From the IMG/VR virus record IMGVR_UViG_3300038393_003162, positions 212,407 through 253,022 of that record: a stretch of DNA of 40,616 nt; one strand, written 5' to 3'. Within the stretch, counting starts at the first letter, position 1. Each line of letters starts with the position of its first letter. Origin of the DNA: a virus. Its lineage: Duplodnaviria > Heunggongvirae > Uroviricota > Caudoviricetes. A program made the position numbers and the translations under genes. Below, piece after piece: positions 5,530 through 13,192 of this stretch. The notes beneath the pieces are model-generated. The model was given only the letters and a program-made list of their open reading frames with translations. It was not told the origin of the DNA and searched no databases.

Positions 5530-6096
5530 ATGTTAAAAACATTTAAAGAATGGTTGTTCCAAGAGTCCCTGAACATTGTGCCAGCGTCTAAAACCATGGC
5601 TGCGAGGACGGTATGGAAACGTGGTCGTCCCAATGGTCTGTCCGAACCCGCCCACGGATGTATCTGGGGAACCACCGATGAAGACACCGCCGATTGGTAT
5701 GGCGACTATGAAGGTGGCTACACCGATCATTTCACGATTGACCCCAACAGTCGGGTCCTTGTCGCGGACAATAAGATCGAATTGATGGCTGCCATCTGGA
5801 ACTGGTCCGAGGACCAGAAAGACGATCTTTACGGGGCTGACGACGACTACGGCTATGTCAACCAAGCCTTGGGGCATCTAGGGATGCCCGCTGGCACCAG
5901 ACCAGCGGACCAATTCCAAAACACGATCAATCTCGATACCAAGATCGGGGAAACGCTTCGGTCGCACGGGATTGACGCGGCGATCATGCATGAACCGTAC
6001 AGCGACGAAGGTCCCGAGATCGTTGTAGCCAATCCAAAAGTCGCTAAATTCATTGACCGAACTGGATACAAGCCCAAGCCGGGACACAATGGCTGA
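5530..6096 (+). CDS. putative ADP-ribosyltransferase-fold protein with T4 internal-protein-like N-terminus (188 aa)
   Basis: N-terminus MLKTFKEWLFQE; ART-like pattern TVWKRG...IWGTT.E..A..Y...GIDAA...PEIVVANP. Confidence 0.45.
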   Translation: MLKTFKEWLFQESLNIVPASKTMAARTVWKRGRPNGLSEPAHGCIWGTTDEDTADWYGDYEGGYTDHFTIDPNSRVLVADNKIELMAAIWNWSEDQKDDLYGADDDYGYVNQALGHLGMPAGTRPADQFQNTINLDTKIGETLRSHGIDAAIMHEPYSDEGPEIVVANPKVAKFIDRTGYKPKPGHNG

Positions 6097-6345
6097 TCAG
6101 ATGTCCGACGCCCTTCGTTGTCTGGTGTAGGCATGGCTCTGATGGACGACGTACTTCTCGGGGAGTGCCGGGTTGTAGACATCGACGACGGTCCAGCCTT
6201 CGGTCCACTTTCCGTTGTCTTCCTCGACCTTAACGACTCTGCCGAGGGTGGTGTACTTCTCAGGTCCCCAGAGAGTTCGATTGATCGTTGCGTTACCTTC
6301 CTGTTTCTGGAGATTACATTGCCTGTACATCGTCTCTTTAGCCAT
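6097..6345 (-). CDS. hypothetical protein (82 aa)
   Basis: AGGAA SD; convergent with the + strand gene. Confidence 0.7.
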   Translation of the reverse strand: MAKETMYRQCNLQKQEGNATINRTLWGPEKYTTLGRVVKVEEDNGKWTEGWTVVDVYNPALPEKYVVHQSHAYTRQRRASDI

Positions 6346-6366
6346 GACTATTCCTTTCTTAAAGAG

Positions 6367-6438
6367 TACCCCCGGTAGGACTCGAACCTACATAAGCCAA
6401 GTTCGAAGCTTGGTGCCATTCCATTTGACGACGAGGGC
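6367..6438 (-). tRNA. trnR: tRNA-Arg(TCG)
   Basis: GCCCTCG/CGGGGGT acceptor, CCAAG-CTTCGAA-CTTGG anticodon arm, GTAGG-TTCGAGT-CCTAC T arm. Confidence 0.9.
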
Positions 6439-6449
6439 ATAATAGATAA

Positions 6450-7046
6450 CTAATCAGTGTTTTTAGTACGATCCAAGCACTTTTGTGACATATGAATTGC
6501 CATCATCATCAAAGCGATTCCATATATTGGAAATGGAATAAACCATGGAGAATAAGCAATTATGAAATTCGCAAACCATGCCATGATAAGGCACACAAGA
6601 AAGCCGCCAAATACAATCCCTTTACAAATGCGATATTGTTTTTGTAAATCGAAATATTTATCCATTACAATATCTGTTCCCATTGTTCTTACATAGAGGT
6701 CGAAATACACTTTGCGTGAAATACGAAACGCCGAATAGACATCATCTTTTTCTATGAAAAGAACATTCTCTGTATACCAAGCAATAAAATTTTTAAATGT
6801 ATTTTTGACTATTTTTCTTTTTAATCTTGATCCCTGCCAGTTAAAAATATTTGTATTATCTATTATATTTGCATCTCTAAGATCAGAGATTAGATTATTA
6901 ACAACATCATCTAATCTGTCAAGTGTTCCTTCGACTCGTTCTAAACACCATGAAAAATAAAAACAAAACCCAACAGCTAAAAGAATGAAAAAATTCCGAA
7001 ATGCATCTTGATCAATCAAAAAATCAATCACGTCCGCATGCTCCAT
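6450..7046 (-). CDS. AT-rich membrane protein (one N-terminal and two C-terminal hydrophobic helices)
   Basis: 198-aa ORF between tRNA-Asn and tRNA-Arg. Confidence 0.65.
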   Translation of the reverse strand: MEHADVIDFLIDQDAFRNFFILLAVGFCFYFSWCLERVEGTLDRLDDVVNNLISDLRDANIIDNTNIFNWQGSRLKRKIVKNTFKNFIAWYTENVLFIEKDDVYSAFRISRKVYFDLYVRTMGTDIVMDKYFDLQKQYRICKGIVFGGFLVCLIMAWFANFIIAYSPWFIPFPIYGIALMMMAIHMSQKCLDRTKNTD

Positions 7047-7077
7047 ACGGTGCCTTGGTTAAGACCAATAACTCAAG

Positions 7078-7167
7078 CAGGGACGGCAGGAATCGAACCT
7101 GCGACGGGGCTTTCGCCACTCCACATTAACAGTGTGGTACAACCAACCAAACAGTTGCCTCATCCCT
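7078..7167 (-). tRNA. trnN: tRNA-Asn(GTT) with long variable arm
   Basis: AGGGATG/CGTCCCT acceptor, CCACA-CTGTTAA-TGTGG anticodon arm, 18-nt variable region with GGC-GAAA-GCC hairpin, G73. Confidence 0.88.
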
Positions 7168-7171
7168 ATAA

Positions 7172-7243
7172 AGCTACCACAAGGATTTGCGCCCTGTTCT
7201 CTGAGGTACAAGCTCAGCGTAATACTACATATACCATGGTAGC
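7172..7243 (-). tRNA. trnT: tRNA-Thr(TGT), non-canonical T loop
   Basis: GCTACCA/TGGTAGC acceptor, CTGAG-CTTGTAC-CTCAG anticodon arm, T loop CGCAAAT. Confidence 0.8.
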
Positions 7244-7253
7244 GAACAGGCTC

Positions 7254-7877
7254 TCAGTAACTTCTTCCTTCTTTATATCTCTGTCTTCTATAATATCGAC
7301 CATTGCCCATATTTCTCCCTTTAAAAGTGGGTGTTTGTGAATCGCAATTAGGGCAAAGCAATCGCAAATTTTCTAGTCGCCAATCATCCGCATTGCCATT
7401 GATATGATCTAGAATTAAAGACAATTGCTTACCTTGCCATTCCACAATTCCACATTCTCGGCACTTATATCCTTCAGTATCCGTGAAATACCGCTTTGCC
7501 GACACCTTTCCAGGGGCTACACCCGAACTCTCCATCTCTTGACGCGATTCATTCCATTTATGTTTTTGACAACATTCATTAGAACAGAACTTTTCATTTT
7601 CTGTTGTCTTTTGACAATTTAAACATACCACATTAGGTCTTGAATAGGTATCTTTTTTAAAGTTCCTAGGCTTACCTAAATTATTGAAAGATGCCGCACA
7701 AGAATGACTACAAAATCGATTACGACGTTTCTCATAGCAAATGGAATCGTCACAATTTTTACATCTCACAGGATTCAGATTATAATCTTCTTGAAGTCTT
7801 TTATACCTCTCTTGATGTGTTTTACAAGTCTTTGTATATCCTAATTTACCTGCTTCACTTCTAGTCATCTTTCTCAT
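7254..7877 (-). CDS. HNH homing endonuclease (207 aa)
   Basis: CxxCG...LILDHINGNADDWRLENLRLLCPNCDSQT; N-terminal CxxC/FCSxxC; GGAGG SD before ATG 7877. Confidence 0.9.
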   Translation of the reverse strand: MRKMTRSEAGKLGYTKTCKTHQERYKRLQEDYNLNPVRCKNCDDSICYEKRRNRFCSHSCAASFNNLGKPRNFKKDTYSRPNVVCLNCQKTTENEKFCSNECCQKHKWNESRQEMESSGVAPGKVSAKRYFTDTEGYKCRECGIVEWQGKQLSLILDHINGNADDWRLENLRLLCPNCDSQTPTFKGRNMGNGRYYRRQRYKEGRSY

Positions 7878-8045
7878 ATAGCCTCCTTGACTATATGAGA
7901 GTATGCCTGAAATTAAAATCAAAATGAATTTAGTAAATACTTTGTACTTAGACTTAACATTCATTAAGCAAATGCGGCTCCGCTGTTTAACGTGGATACA
8001 CAGAACGCTCACGGGACAGTTTAATGTGTTGTACCTAGCACGGAA

Positions 8046-8328
8046 TGTCGCATCCAGGGCTCGAACCTGGCATACGGGTTTGGATTGCTAAAGCGTTCCC
8101 GCGTGTCAACCATTGGAGGATTGGTCGCGAACATCGCCCTCAAACCTACTTGGGTTCGCTACTGACTATCATACTGGTCGCAAGCCTGTCCGGACCATGC
8201 TTCCGGCTCACGGTTTTTCGGCTTTTTAAAGCTTTAGCAATCGTTACTTGCGGGGTTCTGATAGTGTTTGCTTGCCCTTTCGAGGATGATTCTTATGTTT
8301 GCTTCCAACACTCCTACACTAATGCGAC
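8046..8328 (-). ncRNA. 283-nt tRNA-like RNA with ~200-nt D-loop insertion and expanded anticodon loop
   Basis: Acceptor GTCGCAT/ATGCGAC + A73, U8A9, D stem GTGT/ACAC, CGGG/CCCG stem, perfect T arm CCAGG-TTCGAGC-CCTGG; 12-bp complementarity between 8083-8094 and 8231-8242. Confidence 0.65.
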
Positions 8329-8365
8329 ATGTGTTATTGTATCAAATTCATGATATTTTACAAGG

Positions 8366-9028
8366 TCAAATTAAACCATTATCACTGCCTAGTTCGGGAA
8401 CAATATTAAAATCATTTTTCAAACAATCGGCTACCCAACATGCTTCTCTAATGACTTTCCATATAAAAGGACTCACAGTCATTTCAAATGTAAATCTTGC
8501 CTCTGACTTAGAGGAAGATAATTTTTCCCAATCCTTTTTTGCCAACTCATCGTCTTCGTGTAAAAGCCCTCCATAGAAAAAAGCTTTCAATATACGACCA
8601 AGAGAATAGTCCTCGCCTTCGATCATAACTGTACATAATCCTCCTTGATATGCTATAAATTTTCCATGTCCTGTACCGGCTTTGTAAAACTCCAACAAAT
8701 AATTAATATCGGATGAGATTTCTTTAGAGGATGCCAGCATCAACTCACGCAAAGAAGAAATGCCTGTTGCCATATTTGCTTCAGATTTCAAAAATAATTT
8801 GCGAAAATCAATAGTGAATGATCGTAAAAGGTCCTTCGGAAGCGGATAAGTCTTCATCGTAAGACCACCTTCTTCGATTAATTCCGAAGTGTCTTTATGG
8901 TAAGCAATAATATGCTTTACATAATTAGAAGTTCTTATTTTTTGAACAAGATTAACGAACTTCAAGCCACGTTCTCTGGCTTCATCGGCTTTTGATTTTA
9001 AAATATCTACGTCTTGATTCATTGGCAT
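8366..9028 (-). CDS. hypothetical protein (~220 aa), AT-rich
   Basis: Long ORF overlapping the upstream HNH stop by 10 nt. Confidence 0.7.
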   Translation of the reverse strand: MPMNQDVDILKSKADEARERGLKFVNLVQKIRTSNYVKHIIAYHKDTSELIEEGGLTMKTYPLPKDLLRSFTIDFRKLFLKSEANMATGISSLRELMLASSKEISSDINYLLEFYKAGTGHGKFIAYQGGLCTVMIEGEDYSLGRILKAFFYGGLLHEDDELAKKDWEKLSSSKSEARFTFEMTVSPFIWKVIREACWVADCLKNDFNIVPELGSDNGLI

Positions 9029-9636
9029 GCTCCTTTGTTTCTCTTCTCAAGCAAAATAAATTCTCGATGAAGACACCTATGACAATTAGCACACATTACT
9101 TCACACTTCTTCATCTCTTCTAAAATTCTATTTTTACCATAATTATAAGCAATCATGTAGCTTATATCAGCTATTTTTTCATTTGAATTTAGATGATGAA
9201 AATCTAAACAAGCCGGATCATTTTCTCCGCATTTAACACAACGTGATAATTTTTTTATTTCTATAAACCACTCTTTCGTTTCTAATCTTTTCTTAGCTAC
9301 TGCCGAATTCCCATTAATTCGTACATCTCGGCTGTGATGTTTTCTATGGCAATTAGCACACAATATCGTACATTTACTGATTTCCTCAAGAATTTTATTT
9401 TCACTATATGCTTGATTCACCATATTGGCTATGCCCATAAATTTTTCATCTTCATGATGAAACTCTAAGCATAGTCCTTGGTCGCAACCACATTGTTGAC
9501 ACTGCATAGTGGATTTTAAGTTTCGCATCCACTCCGCTCGTTTTTGACGTCTGTCATTAAGACAGGTTTTGTACTTATCTTTATTTCTTTCGTAGTGCTC
9601 TCTTTGTCTTTGTTTTTGCTTTTCTTTATCTCTCAT
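9019..9636 (-). CDS. tandem double-HNH endonuclease
   Basis: Two copies of CxxCG..xCLxFHH...KCxxxCANCHR. Confidence 0.85.
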   Translation of the reverse strand: MRDKEKQKQRQREHYERNKDKYKTCLNDRRQKRAEWMRNLKSTMQCQQCGCDQGLCLEFHHEDEKFMGIANMVNQAYSENKILEEISKCTILCANCHRKHHSRDVRINGNSAVAKKRLETKEWFIEIKKLSRCVKCGENDPACLDFHHLNSNEKIADISYMIAYNYGKNRILEEMKKCEVMCANCHRCLHREFILLEKRNKGACQ

Positions 9637-9801
9637 TCATTAAATGAGTGTTCAATTCATAAAAAATGATTAAATAAAATGCCACGGCAACGGTGCGTTC
9701 CGCGACCGTGGCATTCGAACCTAGGGAGTCCACTTTCTACGCAACTCCCTAAATCACTCTATCGTCCAAATTTTCAAAGAATCGAGTCCCTTCGAGACTC
9801 A

Positions 9802-9876
9802 TCGGAGCGGTCGGATTCGAACCGACATTCTTCGCGCCCCAAACGCGACGGATTAACCAAGTTTTCCTACGCTCCG
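9802..9876 (-). tRNA. trnP: tRNA-Pro(TGG)
   Basis: CGGAGCG/CGCTCCG acceptor, TCGCG-TTTGGGG-CGCGA anticodon arm, TTCGAAT T loop, A73. Confidence 0.95.
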
Positions 9877-9884
9877 TATTTGTC

Positions 9885-10103
9885 TTATCGCTTACCTGCT
9901 CGCATCTTCTTCAGACCACGTCGAGCCTTCTCGGTCTCAGCCGCCTCTCGTGCGACCATCCAGATTCGGCGCACCTTGCGAGGGGTATCCTTGTGGCGTT
10001 CCATCTCGCGGCACTTGTCGATCCAGGAGAGCAATTCTCGATCAGTCATATCCAGCGGCTCGGTTTGCTTTAGTCGTTCCAGTTCCTTTTCGCCCATTTT
10101 CAT
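9885..10103 (-). CDS. hypothetical protein (72 aa)
   Basis: GAGG SD before ATG 10103. Confidence 0.6.
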   Translation of the reverse strand: MKMGEKELERLKQTEPLDMTDRELLSWIDKCREMERHKDTPRKVRRIWMVAREAAETEKARRGLKKMRAGKR

Positions 10104-11932: not shown

Positions 11933-13192
11933 TTAACGACTGATTCCAATTATACCAGATTCGGGTCTGGTGTAAAGACTTTTACTGATCGATTTCTTAT
12001 CCACCGGGGTCGTGATTGCCTTTTCGAAGCTCCAATTTCGCTTAAGGCGAGCGGTGATTGTTACTCGACTCGAAACAACTCGCCGCTTATCCTTGAGCCA
12101 TTCGGACATTGTTTTCTCTTCGCCGAACGCTCGGTACAAGGGCATTTGTTGCTCGGGGTGAGTGATTGCTCTTTCCGGTTCCCAATTGCTATAGAGCCGG
12201 TGCCTCAGCAACTTCACATTGACACGGCAACGACCATCATTCGCCCATTCCCTGATTGTCTTCTTTTCGCCGAATGCTTCATATTCCTCGAAAGTTCGCA
12301 GATCAACAGATATTGCCTTTTCATTATCTTGAGATGTGTTACATTTTTTCAAGCGTTTGCGAAGACTGTGGTATGTGTTCCCGGTTCCGCACCTGGGGTC
12401 TTGCAGCCACTCTGCGAGAGTTTTCGACTCTCCGAATGCTTCGTATTTTTCAGGCAAAAAAGCGTAATCATGCGTAAAGGCTTTTTGAAAACTCCATTTT
12501 TCCACGACGATCCGCTGGCGAATCGTTTCCGGAGCGGCTGCCGGACGTCGTGGGTCTCGCATCCATTGTTCCCAAGTTTTCTTCTCGCCGAACGCCGTAT
12601 ATATCTTTCCACGGGTGCTGGTTGTATTGACCGCTTCGGCGACGGTCATCCCCGATTTAATCCTACTCCGCAGGGTTGATGGGCTTTTTCCGGTGATAAA
12701 AGCCAATTCTCCGATTGTGTATTTCTCCCCTTCGTATTCATGTTTCGCGTAGCTGGGACGGTCTTTTTTCCAGAAACAATTTTCAGGGGAATATCCCTGC
12801 GATTTGTCTCGACGTTGTAGACTATAGCAGCGTCTAGGTTTTGGCTTGCGACCCATGTTGGCGAGGAATTGGGTAAATCCGTTCTCGCCTTTCCACGATT
12901 CACAGACATCGTCTGGACTTCTCTTGACCATCTTCGACCATGCTTTGTGTTCATGGAACGCGGGGTTTCTTTTGCCGCGTCGGCAATCGCCCTTCTTCCA
13001 GCAATTCTTACAACTATTGTCGGAATATGCGTCGATCAGGTCATGACGAATAACGTGTTTGTGATTGCACTTGATACACTGACATTTCCAGTACCGTCTT
13101 TTTCTCTTATCGGAGGATTCGGATTTAAAGACCAAGTCAAGGACTTTCCAGGTTCCGATGGTTTGTCCGGTCAAGTCGATGAGGGTCCGCAT
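11933..13192 (-). CDS. HNH-like homing endonuclease family protein with five C-terminal ~45-aa repeats
   Basis: IDLTGQTIG.W.V...WKCQC...SC; F..F...MG..P...SLQRRD...Y.PENC.W; repeats Y-x-AFGE-x-KT-x-x-(E/Q)W. Confidence 0.75.
   Translation of the reverse strand: MRTLIDLTGQTIGTWKVLDLVFKSESSDKRKRRYWKCQCIKCNHKHVIRHDLIDAYSDNSCKNCWKKGDCRRGKRNPAFHEHKAWSKMVKRSPDDVCESWKGENGFTQFLANMGRKPKPRRCYSLQRRDKSQGYSPENCFWKKDRPSYAKHEYEGEKYTIGELAFITGKSPSTLRSRIKSGMTVAEAVNTTSTRGKIYTAFGEKKTWEQWMRDPRRPAAAPETIRQRIVVEKWSFQKAFTHDYAFLPEKYEAFGESKTLAEWLQDPRCGTGNTYHSLRKRLKKCNTSQDNEKAISVDLRTFEEYEAFGEKKTIREWANDGRCRVNVKLLRHRLYSNWEPERAITHPEQQMPLYRAFGEEKTMSEWLKDKRRVVSSRVTITARLKRNWSFEKAITTPVDKKSISKSLYTRPESGIIGISR

Follow-up and report, generated by a model that had tools for sequence, protein, structure and literature searches.

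What is a phage gene that begins and ends like a transfer RNA (tRNA) gene and yet is 283 nucleotides (nt) long? The question is raised by a locus, from here on the target, at positions 8046..8328 on the minus strand of the DNA stretch analysed here (40,616 nt of IMGVR_UViG_3300038393_003162, the window); the window is part of a 195-kb IMG/VR virus record. All features of the target lie on that strand, and RNA numbering runs from nt 1 (window 8328) to nt 283 (window 8046). The original prediction, made from the letters alone, saw a stable tRNA-mimicking non-coding RNA. The reading that we put forward, tentatively, is a different one: a phage tRNA gene, Trp(CCA)-like, with two intervening sequences, a ~201-nt one in the D loop and, in the anticodon arm, a 12-nt one that separates positions 31 and 32.

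The predicted tRNA frame was borne out both by direct reading and by an independent genome scan for frames of T arm plus acceptor stem, which recovered the target as a 282-nt frame. The acceptor stem GUCGCAU (nt 1-7)/AUGCGAC (nt 276-282) has 7 base pairs (bp), 100% of them Watson-Crick, and is followed by A73. U8 and A9 precede the D stem GUGU (nt 10-13)/ACAC (nt 223-226), with A14-G15 on the 5′ side of the D arm and UGGUUG, containing G18 and G19, before ACAC on the 3′ side. G26 is nt 227, the anticodon stem is CGGG (nt 228-231)/CCCG (nt 251-254), the variable region is UAUG (4 nt) and the T arm, CCAGG-UUCGAGC-CCUGG, is canonical. Measured against the tRNA family RF00005, the acceptor stem, the UUCRA-type T loop, the D stem, U8 and G18-G19 are all present; a contiguous gene of 70-95 nt and a 5-bp anticodon stem with a 7-nt, U33-containing loop are not, the anticodon loop being 19 nt long. 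Three parts look like exons. The 5′ part (8314..8328) comprises the acceptor 5′ strand, U8, A9, GUGU, A14 and G15, and was delimited by sequence, frame scan and ARAGORN; the middle part (8098..8112; sequence and ARAGORN) comprises UGGUUG, ACAC, G26 and CGGG; the 3′ part (8046..8085) runs from the putative loop AUCCAAA (anticodon CCA) through the anticodon stem 3′ strand, the variable region, the T arm and the acceptor 3′ strand to A73. The CCA end is not encoded by the gene. A putative sigma-70-like promoter, TTGTAA - 16 nt - TG-n-TACAAT (8336..8363), ends 7 nt before nt 1. It is the sole such site in the region, the count of these sites is not above that in shuffled sequences, and TACAAT with the same 7-nt spacing is also found ahead of the tRNA-Met at genome position 34984.

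The larger insert occupies the D loop (~201 nt, nt 16-216, boundary +/- a few nt; 8113..8313) and is predicted to form a rod-like imperfect hairpin with paired ends. The smaller one, AACGCUUUAGCA (12 nt; 8086..8097), was placed between positions 31 and 32 by ARAGORN after removal of the D-loop insert. As had been predicted, a stretch of the D-loop insert, GAUUGCUAAAGC (nt 87-98; 8231..8242), is the exact complement of GCUUUAGCAAUC in the expanded anticodon loop (nt 235-246; 8083..8094). The pairing is perfect and constitutes the longest inverted repeat in the target RNA. A perfect repeat of at least 12 bp appeared in 1 of 3000 dinucleotide shuffles of this RNA, and a 12-bp match between insert and anticodon arm in none of 2000 shuffles. 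The helix covers nine nt of the small insert together with A32, U33 and C34 of the putative loop, and for this reason we read the target as a tRNA gene with two mutually pairing inserts.

Relative to the cloverleaf, the 12-bp helix is a pseudoknot. Its duplex energy is -16.5 kcal/mol, and the predicted ensemble is split between this helix (probability 0.53) and the rod fold (~0.47), the two being mutually exclusive in the nested model. The D-loop insert alone folds moderately better than shuffles (z -2.21). Most of the inner helices that had been proposed for it did not survive: GUUGGAAG/CCUCCAAU, CUC-GAAA-GGG and AAGCC/GGCUU have ~0 probability in the ensemble, and a 7-bp helix such as ACUAUCA/UGAUAGU is no more than chance would give (7% of shuffles contain perfect repeats of at least 9 bp). 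The base helix preferred by the thermodynamic model lies in another register, GGAG/CUCC plus GUUGG/CCAAU.

When the D-loop insert was removed in silico, over many boundary choices, ARAGORN called a tRNA-Trp(CCA) with a 12-nt insert at 31/32. The restored loop AUCCAAA has U33, A37 and A38; an alternative excision of the paired arm (8083-8094) leaves the 7-nt loop AACCAAA. In the intact target ARAGORN called neither a tRNA nor a transfer-messenger RNA (tmRNA), with or without introns of up to 400 nt; it accepts the target only after two removals, and then without N26.

Interruption of tRNA genes is characteristic of this phage, which supports the reading as an interrupted gene. The minus strand carries the tRNA array, whose tRNAs number 9 within the window and 34 over the 195-kb record, and at least six other tRNA frames carry inserts. 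Over-long frames are located at genome positions 51117, 60997, 62311, 63438, 72603, 72816 and 72954. For three of them every single deletion was enumerated. In Lys(UUU), removal of a 63-nt insert after position 29 is the one perfect solution and restores a perfect anticodon stem; the same holds for a 58-nt insert after position 28 of Arg(UCG). Removal of a 66-nt insert after position 32 of Cys(GCA) also gives a tRNA, its stem keeping an A31/A39 mismatch. These inserts (Cys-GCA, Lys-UUU and Arg-UCG at L016:236-301, 446-508 and 582-639, respectively; genome 72603-73083, outside the window) share the motifs YUUGU and GAAUAC, the 3′ end UACAU and a hairpin shape with paired ends. In their helix H1, 23/24 cells are paired and 5/8 pairs have changed on both sides, which was equalled in 1/500 shuffles (N = 3). 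Since H1 has been kept through compensatory changes, these inserts appear to be under selection at the RNA level, which speaks for introns and not for junk. They gave no Rfam match and no bulge-helix-bulge (BHB) motif, and they look like an undescribed intron family; a search of IMG/VR with their motif pattern returned chance matches in coding DNA only. The frame at genome 62311 (L015:1412-1494) has an 18-nt anticodon loop with 11 extra nt at 31/32.

Further irregular frames were observed in this array. Two odd frames of 111 nt and 113 nt carry inserts (L014:218-327, genome 51117, and L015:98-210, genome 60997), and the frame at genome 63360 (L015:2461-2537) has an 8-nt anticodon loop, UUGCAAGG.

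The nearest relative found in the phage collection is LR756511, an uncultured 595-kb phage (595,163 bp) with 49.8% identity on a thiamine pyrophosphate (TPP) enzyme. Related inserts lie in a Tyr(GUA)-like gene of this phage, where D loop and D stem meet, and at 26/27 of an Arg(UCG) gene; a CAU gene has a 21-nt hairpin inserted at 31/32. Like the target, the inserts of LR756511 and those of the Lys, Arg and Cys genes occupy noncanonical positions on the 5′ side (D loop, 26/27, 28/29, 29/30, 31/32, 32/33), form hairpins with paired ends and match neither a BHB nor a ribozyme. In LR756511 we also noted a related insert family, CUUGGA-hairpin-UCCCC ... AGCAUACAAAC, on the minus strand (L031:10182-10233, 12160-12205, 12362-12416), whose members sit on the border between D loop and D stem, in position 26/27 and in a third position; the Tyr-like gene has A33 in place of U33.

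The tRNA introns of huge phages (Lak and others) have been called 'enigmatic', and at least four intron-bearing tRNAs were predicted for a 595,573-bp phage genome, putatively circularised (10.1101/356790). There, as in the target, tRNA genes of excessive length occur in phages with genomes of hundreds of kb, and the inserts have no Rfam family. Unlike in the target, the excision points predicted in the available part of that report (tRNAscan, eukaryote setting) are of the anticodon-loop type, and no D-loop insert of ~200 nt that pairs with another insert is described in it. The target locus belongs to this wider phenomenon of huge-phage tRNA introns without a known mechanism.

Because of the insert-bearing frames in the same phage, the D-loop insert of LR756511 and the Trp(CCA) call after D-loop removal, we consider a tRNA mimic less likely than an interrupted gene, and the claim of a stable mimic is not supported in the form in which it was made. 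The original prediction had itself named an intron-bearing tRNA as the case that would speak against it. Such a case did emerge in silico, as the Trp(CCA)-like frame; splicing itself is a prediction, and the mimic stays a rival.

Several observations weigh against an interrupted gene. By enumeration, no single deletion of 9-10 nt yields a fully canonical anticodon arm. In the best restored model, either N26 is missing and the variable loop has 3 nt, or the stem has 4 bp; the model also has A32 and, in place of the usual purine-pyrimidine pair, G15/G48. A canonical tRNA-Trp is already encoded elsewhere in the same phage genome. The D-loop insert is three times longer than the Lys, Arg and Cys inserts and has none of their motifs (H1, YUUGU, H2, GAAUAC, UACAU), with only the paired ends in common; the target is also alone in pairing with its anticodon arm, which none of the 58-66-nt inserts does. 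A likeness of nt 19-34 to the 3′ ends of these shorter inserts was considered and dropped: the shared part lies in the covarying helix, and only ACAU is left, which is expected by chance. The antisense of the D-loop insert folds equally well (z -2.06). In the syntenic relative L034, whose ligase is 55% identical, Pro-Arg-Asn-His occupy the corresponding place and the target has no counterpart. A splicing endonuclease was not found, with neither EndA (PF01974) nor RtcB in the 195-kb fragment. Finally, no homologue of the target was found in any collection searched, and therefore no target helix, the 12-bp helix included, has support from covariation.

The homologue searches were as follows. A target homologue was found neither by blastn against phage records nor by nhmmer, which was run on the tRNA array of LR756511, on the syntenic relatives and on the genome of the phage itself, and exact and gapped patterns (12-mer pair, 3′ end, exon anchors) gave nothing in JGI metagenomes or in IMG/VR. 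One 29-nt match (E 0.04), outside any tRNA, came from a BLAST search of four huge-phage genomes. The flanking 220-aa open reading frame (ORF) matched only itself in IMG/VR and in a set of 5.8 billion proteins, and the contigs obtained were identical to the window; proteins identical to this ORF and to the ligase are also present on a 585-kb contig. Rfam was run at the gathering threshold on the window and at E<=10 on 551 nt and 221 nt. Even at E<=10 there was no tRNA (RF00005), tmRNA, group I, group II, RNase P or small-ribozyme match to the target, and only two small nucleolar RNA models appeared, at the noise level of E ~6. With neither a family nor a homologue in these searches, the earlier description of the element as undescribed stands.

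Some of the points just listed favour a second explanation, which we nevertheless consider rather doubtful: a dead or decaying spare tRNA gene, in which a ~200-bp imperfect palindromic DNA element sits in the D-loop region within an island rich in homing endonucleases, and the 12-nt inverted copy is a product of template-switch (quasi-palindrome) repair and has no RNA function. Because the antisense strand folds equally well, the fold signal of the insert shows no strand asymmetry and is the kind that a palindrome at the DNA level gives. The termini of the insert are imperfect 10-bp inverted repeats, and at the 5′ junction an 8-nt tandem repeat, GUGUAGGA|GUGUUGGA (nt 10-25; 8304..8319), runs from the D stem 5′ strand into the start of the insert; it could be a repair or slippage scar. 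The paired arms match at 12/12 positions, with neither a mismatch nor a G-U pair, as would be expected of a recent copy. HNH genes flank the locus in DNA of low GC content (0.39-0.40), the phage has its canonical tRNA-Trp, L034 lacks the gene, and the restored tRNA would be non-canonical. Decay is harder to reconcile with four tRNA stems and a T loop that are still perfect and with the promoter-like site. The element has no other copy in the phage genome or in any collection searched, and no matching target-site duplication was found flanking the 12-bp arms. Moreover, the pairing reaches into the native-looking A32, U33 and C34 (in the placement that keeps U33), and inserts at 31/32 recur in functional-looking frames of this lineage. 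A miniature inverted-repeat transposable element (MITE) was also considered; the imperfect terminal repeats would suit one, but the insert is single-copy and no flanking duplication was seen.

We regard as unlikely, and as somewhat less probable than decay, that the 283-nt RNA is itself the end product. According to this explanation the RNA would remain unspliced and stable, its tRNA-like ends and elbow would serve RNase P, RNase Z and CCA addition, and its loop would be masked by the insert or free to pair elsewhere, making it a decoy, a sensor ligand or a riboregulator; the target may, in this alternative, be a self-masking, tRNA-like switch RNA. The intact tRNA frame and the highly non-random 12-bp pairing would suit such a molecule, and the ensemble split of 0.53 to 0.47 is switch-like. 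That no excision gives a fully canonical anticodon arm also argues for it, and T4 offers a precedent, with two stable RNAs without known function made from its tRNA cluster. On the other hand, the family context favours intervening sequences, selection on the large form is not indicated by anything, the search having found no homologues, and the fold of the whole 283 nt is not better than that of shuffles (z -1.31). A possible pairing partner outside the locus was observed in a 676-aa ORF (genome 186248-188275), which contains at position 186772 a 13-nt perfect complement to GAACGCUUUAGCA of the expanded loop. This complement has 9 nt in common with the insert's guide; it counts in favour of an unspliced end product, but its estimated chance probability, ~0.1, puts it close to chance, and no function is known for the ORF. 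The original prediction had also suggested an HNH-associated RNA. An HNH gene (7254-7877) does start at 7877, 168 nt downstream of the target; the link is one of adjacency, HNH genes being scattered through the whole tRNA array.

A self-splicing ribozyme in the D loop (a much-reduced group I-like intron or a new class), with the 12-nt guide positioning the anticodon-loop insert for excision, is very improbable: ~201 nt is the size of the smallest group I introns, ACUAUCA...GUAUGAUAGUC loosely resembles the group I R/S (P7) elements, the guide recalls an internal guide sequence and the downstream HNH gene is free-standing, but no group I, group II or small-ribozyme model matched on 221-551 nt, the P7 assignment leaves no room for P4-P6 or the P3 5′ strand, the guide helix has no U-G wobble and pairs with one continuous stretch and not with the ends of two exons, the fold is predicted to be a rod without branches, and a search with a P7-like-core pattern gave one IMG/VR and three GTDB genome matches, about the number expected by chance and without similarity beyond the pattern.

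The established intron classes were rejected on similar grounds, in agreement with the earlier statement that no group I, group II or BHB signature is present. For a group I intron there was no covariance match, and a hand model with ACUAUCA/UGAUAGU as P7 leaves 9-48 nt for P4-P6. A group II intron would be expected to exceed 400 nt, compared with the 201 nt of the insert, and again Rfam gave no match. Bacterial tRNA group I introns and the group II intron of chloroplast trnG-UCC do resemble the target in lying in bacterial-type tRNA genes and in their length of at least 200 nt, and the D-stem intron of trnG-UCC indicates that an intron in the D arm can be tolerated. Known group I tRNA introns, however, sit in the anticodon loop, and the target has neither a covariance-model match nor the core helices of either class.

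BHB introns of archaeal and red-algal tRNA genes occur in the D loop, may number several per gene and are independent of the insert sequence. The target shares with them the positions and the presence of two introns in one gene. It differs in the motif: no BHB could be drawn by hand at the D-loop boundaries, at the 31/32 insert or at the Lys insert. EndA and RtcB, as said above, are absent from the phage fragment, and the host of the phage is probably bacterial. In Haloferax, the intron of the pre-tRNA-Trp is a box C/D guide against its own anticodon arm, and the target resembles it in having an intron with a ~12-nt guide complementary to the anticodon region of the tRNA-Trp(CCA) precursor that contains it. 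Unlike in Haloferax, the guide of the target sits in the other intron than its pairing partner, and no C or D box was seen by hand at the guide (UUUA follows, not CUGA). Bacteria and phages are not known to have the fibrillarin machinery. Hand models of a box C/D guide and of an RNase P-like RNA were dropped, as core features were missing.

A closer parallel in shape is given by the intervening sequences of ribosomal RNA (rRNA) that are excised by RNase III without religation. They and the D-loop insert alike are imperfect palindromes of rod shape whose ends pair; both interrupt a loop of a structured RNA, occur only sporadically in related genomes and have no conserved sequence. Such sequences are not known from tRNA, and this model leaves the 12-bp pairing unexplained. 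No RNase III gene was found in the 195-kb phage fragment.

A tmRNA was ruled out, as the original prediction had already held. The target has the tRNA-like ends and approximately the length (~280-350 nt) of a tmRNA, but C3-G70 (C3-G280) in place of G3:U70; it keeps the D and anticodon stems, and both ARAGORN and Rfam were negative. The GCA-started frame reads ANIRIILERASKHYQNPASNDC, and no usual tag reading frame is present. LR756511 does encode a tmRNA (L054:3180-3532; tag ANPEFAMAA); none was found in the 195-kb record of the present phage.

Returning to the interrupted Trp(CCA)-like gene, its expression could proceed as follows. The gene's own promoter probably drives a 283-nt precursor in which the tRNA frame can form. 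A stretch near the tip of the D-loop insert would pair with the small insert and the first three bases of the loop, and the two inserts would then be one folded unit. Both would be excised by protein enzymes, an endonuclease followed by a sealing activity, and not by self-splicing. We favour proteins because no ribozyme signature was found, and because the inserts at 28/29 and 29/30 would leave a nick in a duplex, which is a substrate of Rnl2-type ligases. The same machinery would also have to excise the 58-66-nt inserts from the Lys, Arg and Cys genes.

The phage encodes an Rnl2-type RNA ligase (PF09414), adjoining a weak 2H phosphoesterase match below the Pfam cut-off. Both belong to a cluster (L002:22-2094, genome ~130390-132462) that further contains a PF19269 anticodon-binding domain of the aminoacyl-tRNA synthetase type and a 94-aa ORF; this cluster could be a tRNA repair or splicing module.

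A more specific proposal would be a guide-directed, two-part intervening sequence. Here the 12-nt guide in the D-loop insert would mark the anticodon-loop segment for cutting, as part of a new mode of tRNA intron splicing in bacterial viruses that uses D-loop and anticodon-stem positions and has no group I, group II or BHB features. We offer this as a speculation, slightly less probable still than an unspliced end product.

Bacteria and phages are not known to interrupt tRNA genes other than by self-splicing group I introns in the anticodon loop, and elsewhere inserts in such places as the D loop and the anticodon stem are known from archaea and a small number of eukaryotes alone. The phage lineage described here has many tRNA genes with structured inserts, also in the D loop and the anticodon stem, and none with a known splicing signature. 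If the inserts are removed, a new endonuclease-ligase pathway or a new ribozyme would operate in bacterial viruses, and the long-unexplained Rnl2-type RNA ligases of phages would have a possible job. The target is the extreme case, with two inserts that pair with each other, and could show how such inserts are recognised. If it is instead a dead gene, it documents the decay of tRNA arrays rich in homing endonucleases.

The surroundings of the target have features of their own. The low-GC stretch (window 6000-10000; 0.39-0.40 versus ~0.45-0.55 elsewhere) holds the target, the HNH genes at 7254-7877 and 9019-9636 and ORFs without relatives, and looks like mobile DNA associated with homing endonucleases. 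A 102-aa ORF antisense to the target locus has no Pfam match and looks like noise. On contig L043, from the same JGI sample, the gene calls just after the ligase differ in size and strand. The NAD-dependent DNA ligase of the phage (window 13214-15349, minus strand) has its closest cellular relatives, at 41-43% identity, in Planctomycetota or Pirellulaceae, a weak hint from sequence similarity at a host of this kind.

Other unusual tRNAs were also noted, two of them at window 7077-7243 (minus strand). The tRNA-Asn(GUU) there is 91 nt long, has a long extra arm and is missed by Rfam at the gathering threshold. The adjoining tRNA-Thr(UGU) has the T loop GCGCAAAUC and a D loop without GG, so that the elbow contacts normal for a tRNA are missing. 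Both this phage (genome 139647-139720) and LR756511 (L053:4088-4161) encode an amber-suppressor tRNA, with the anticodon CUA, and TAG may be recoded in part of the genome.
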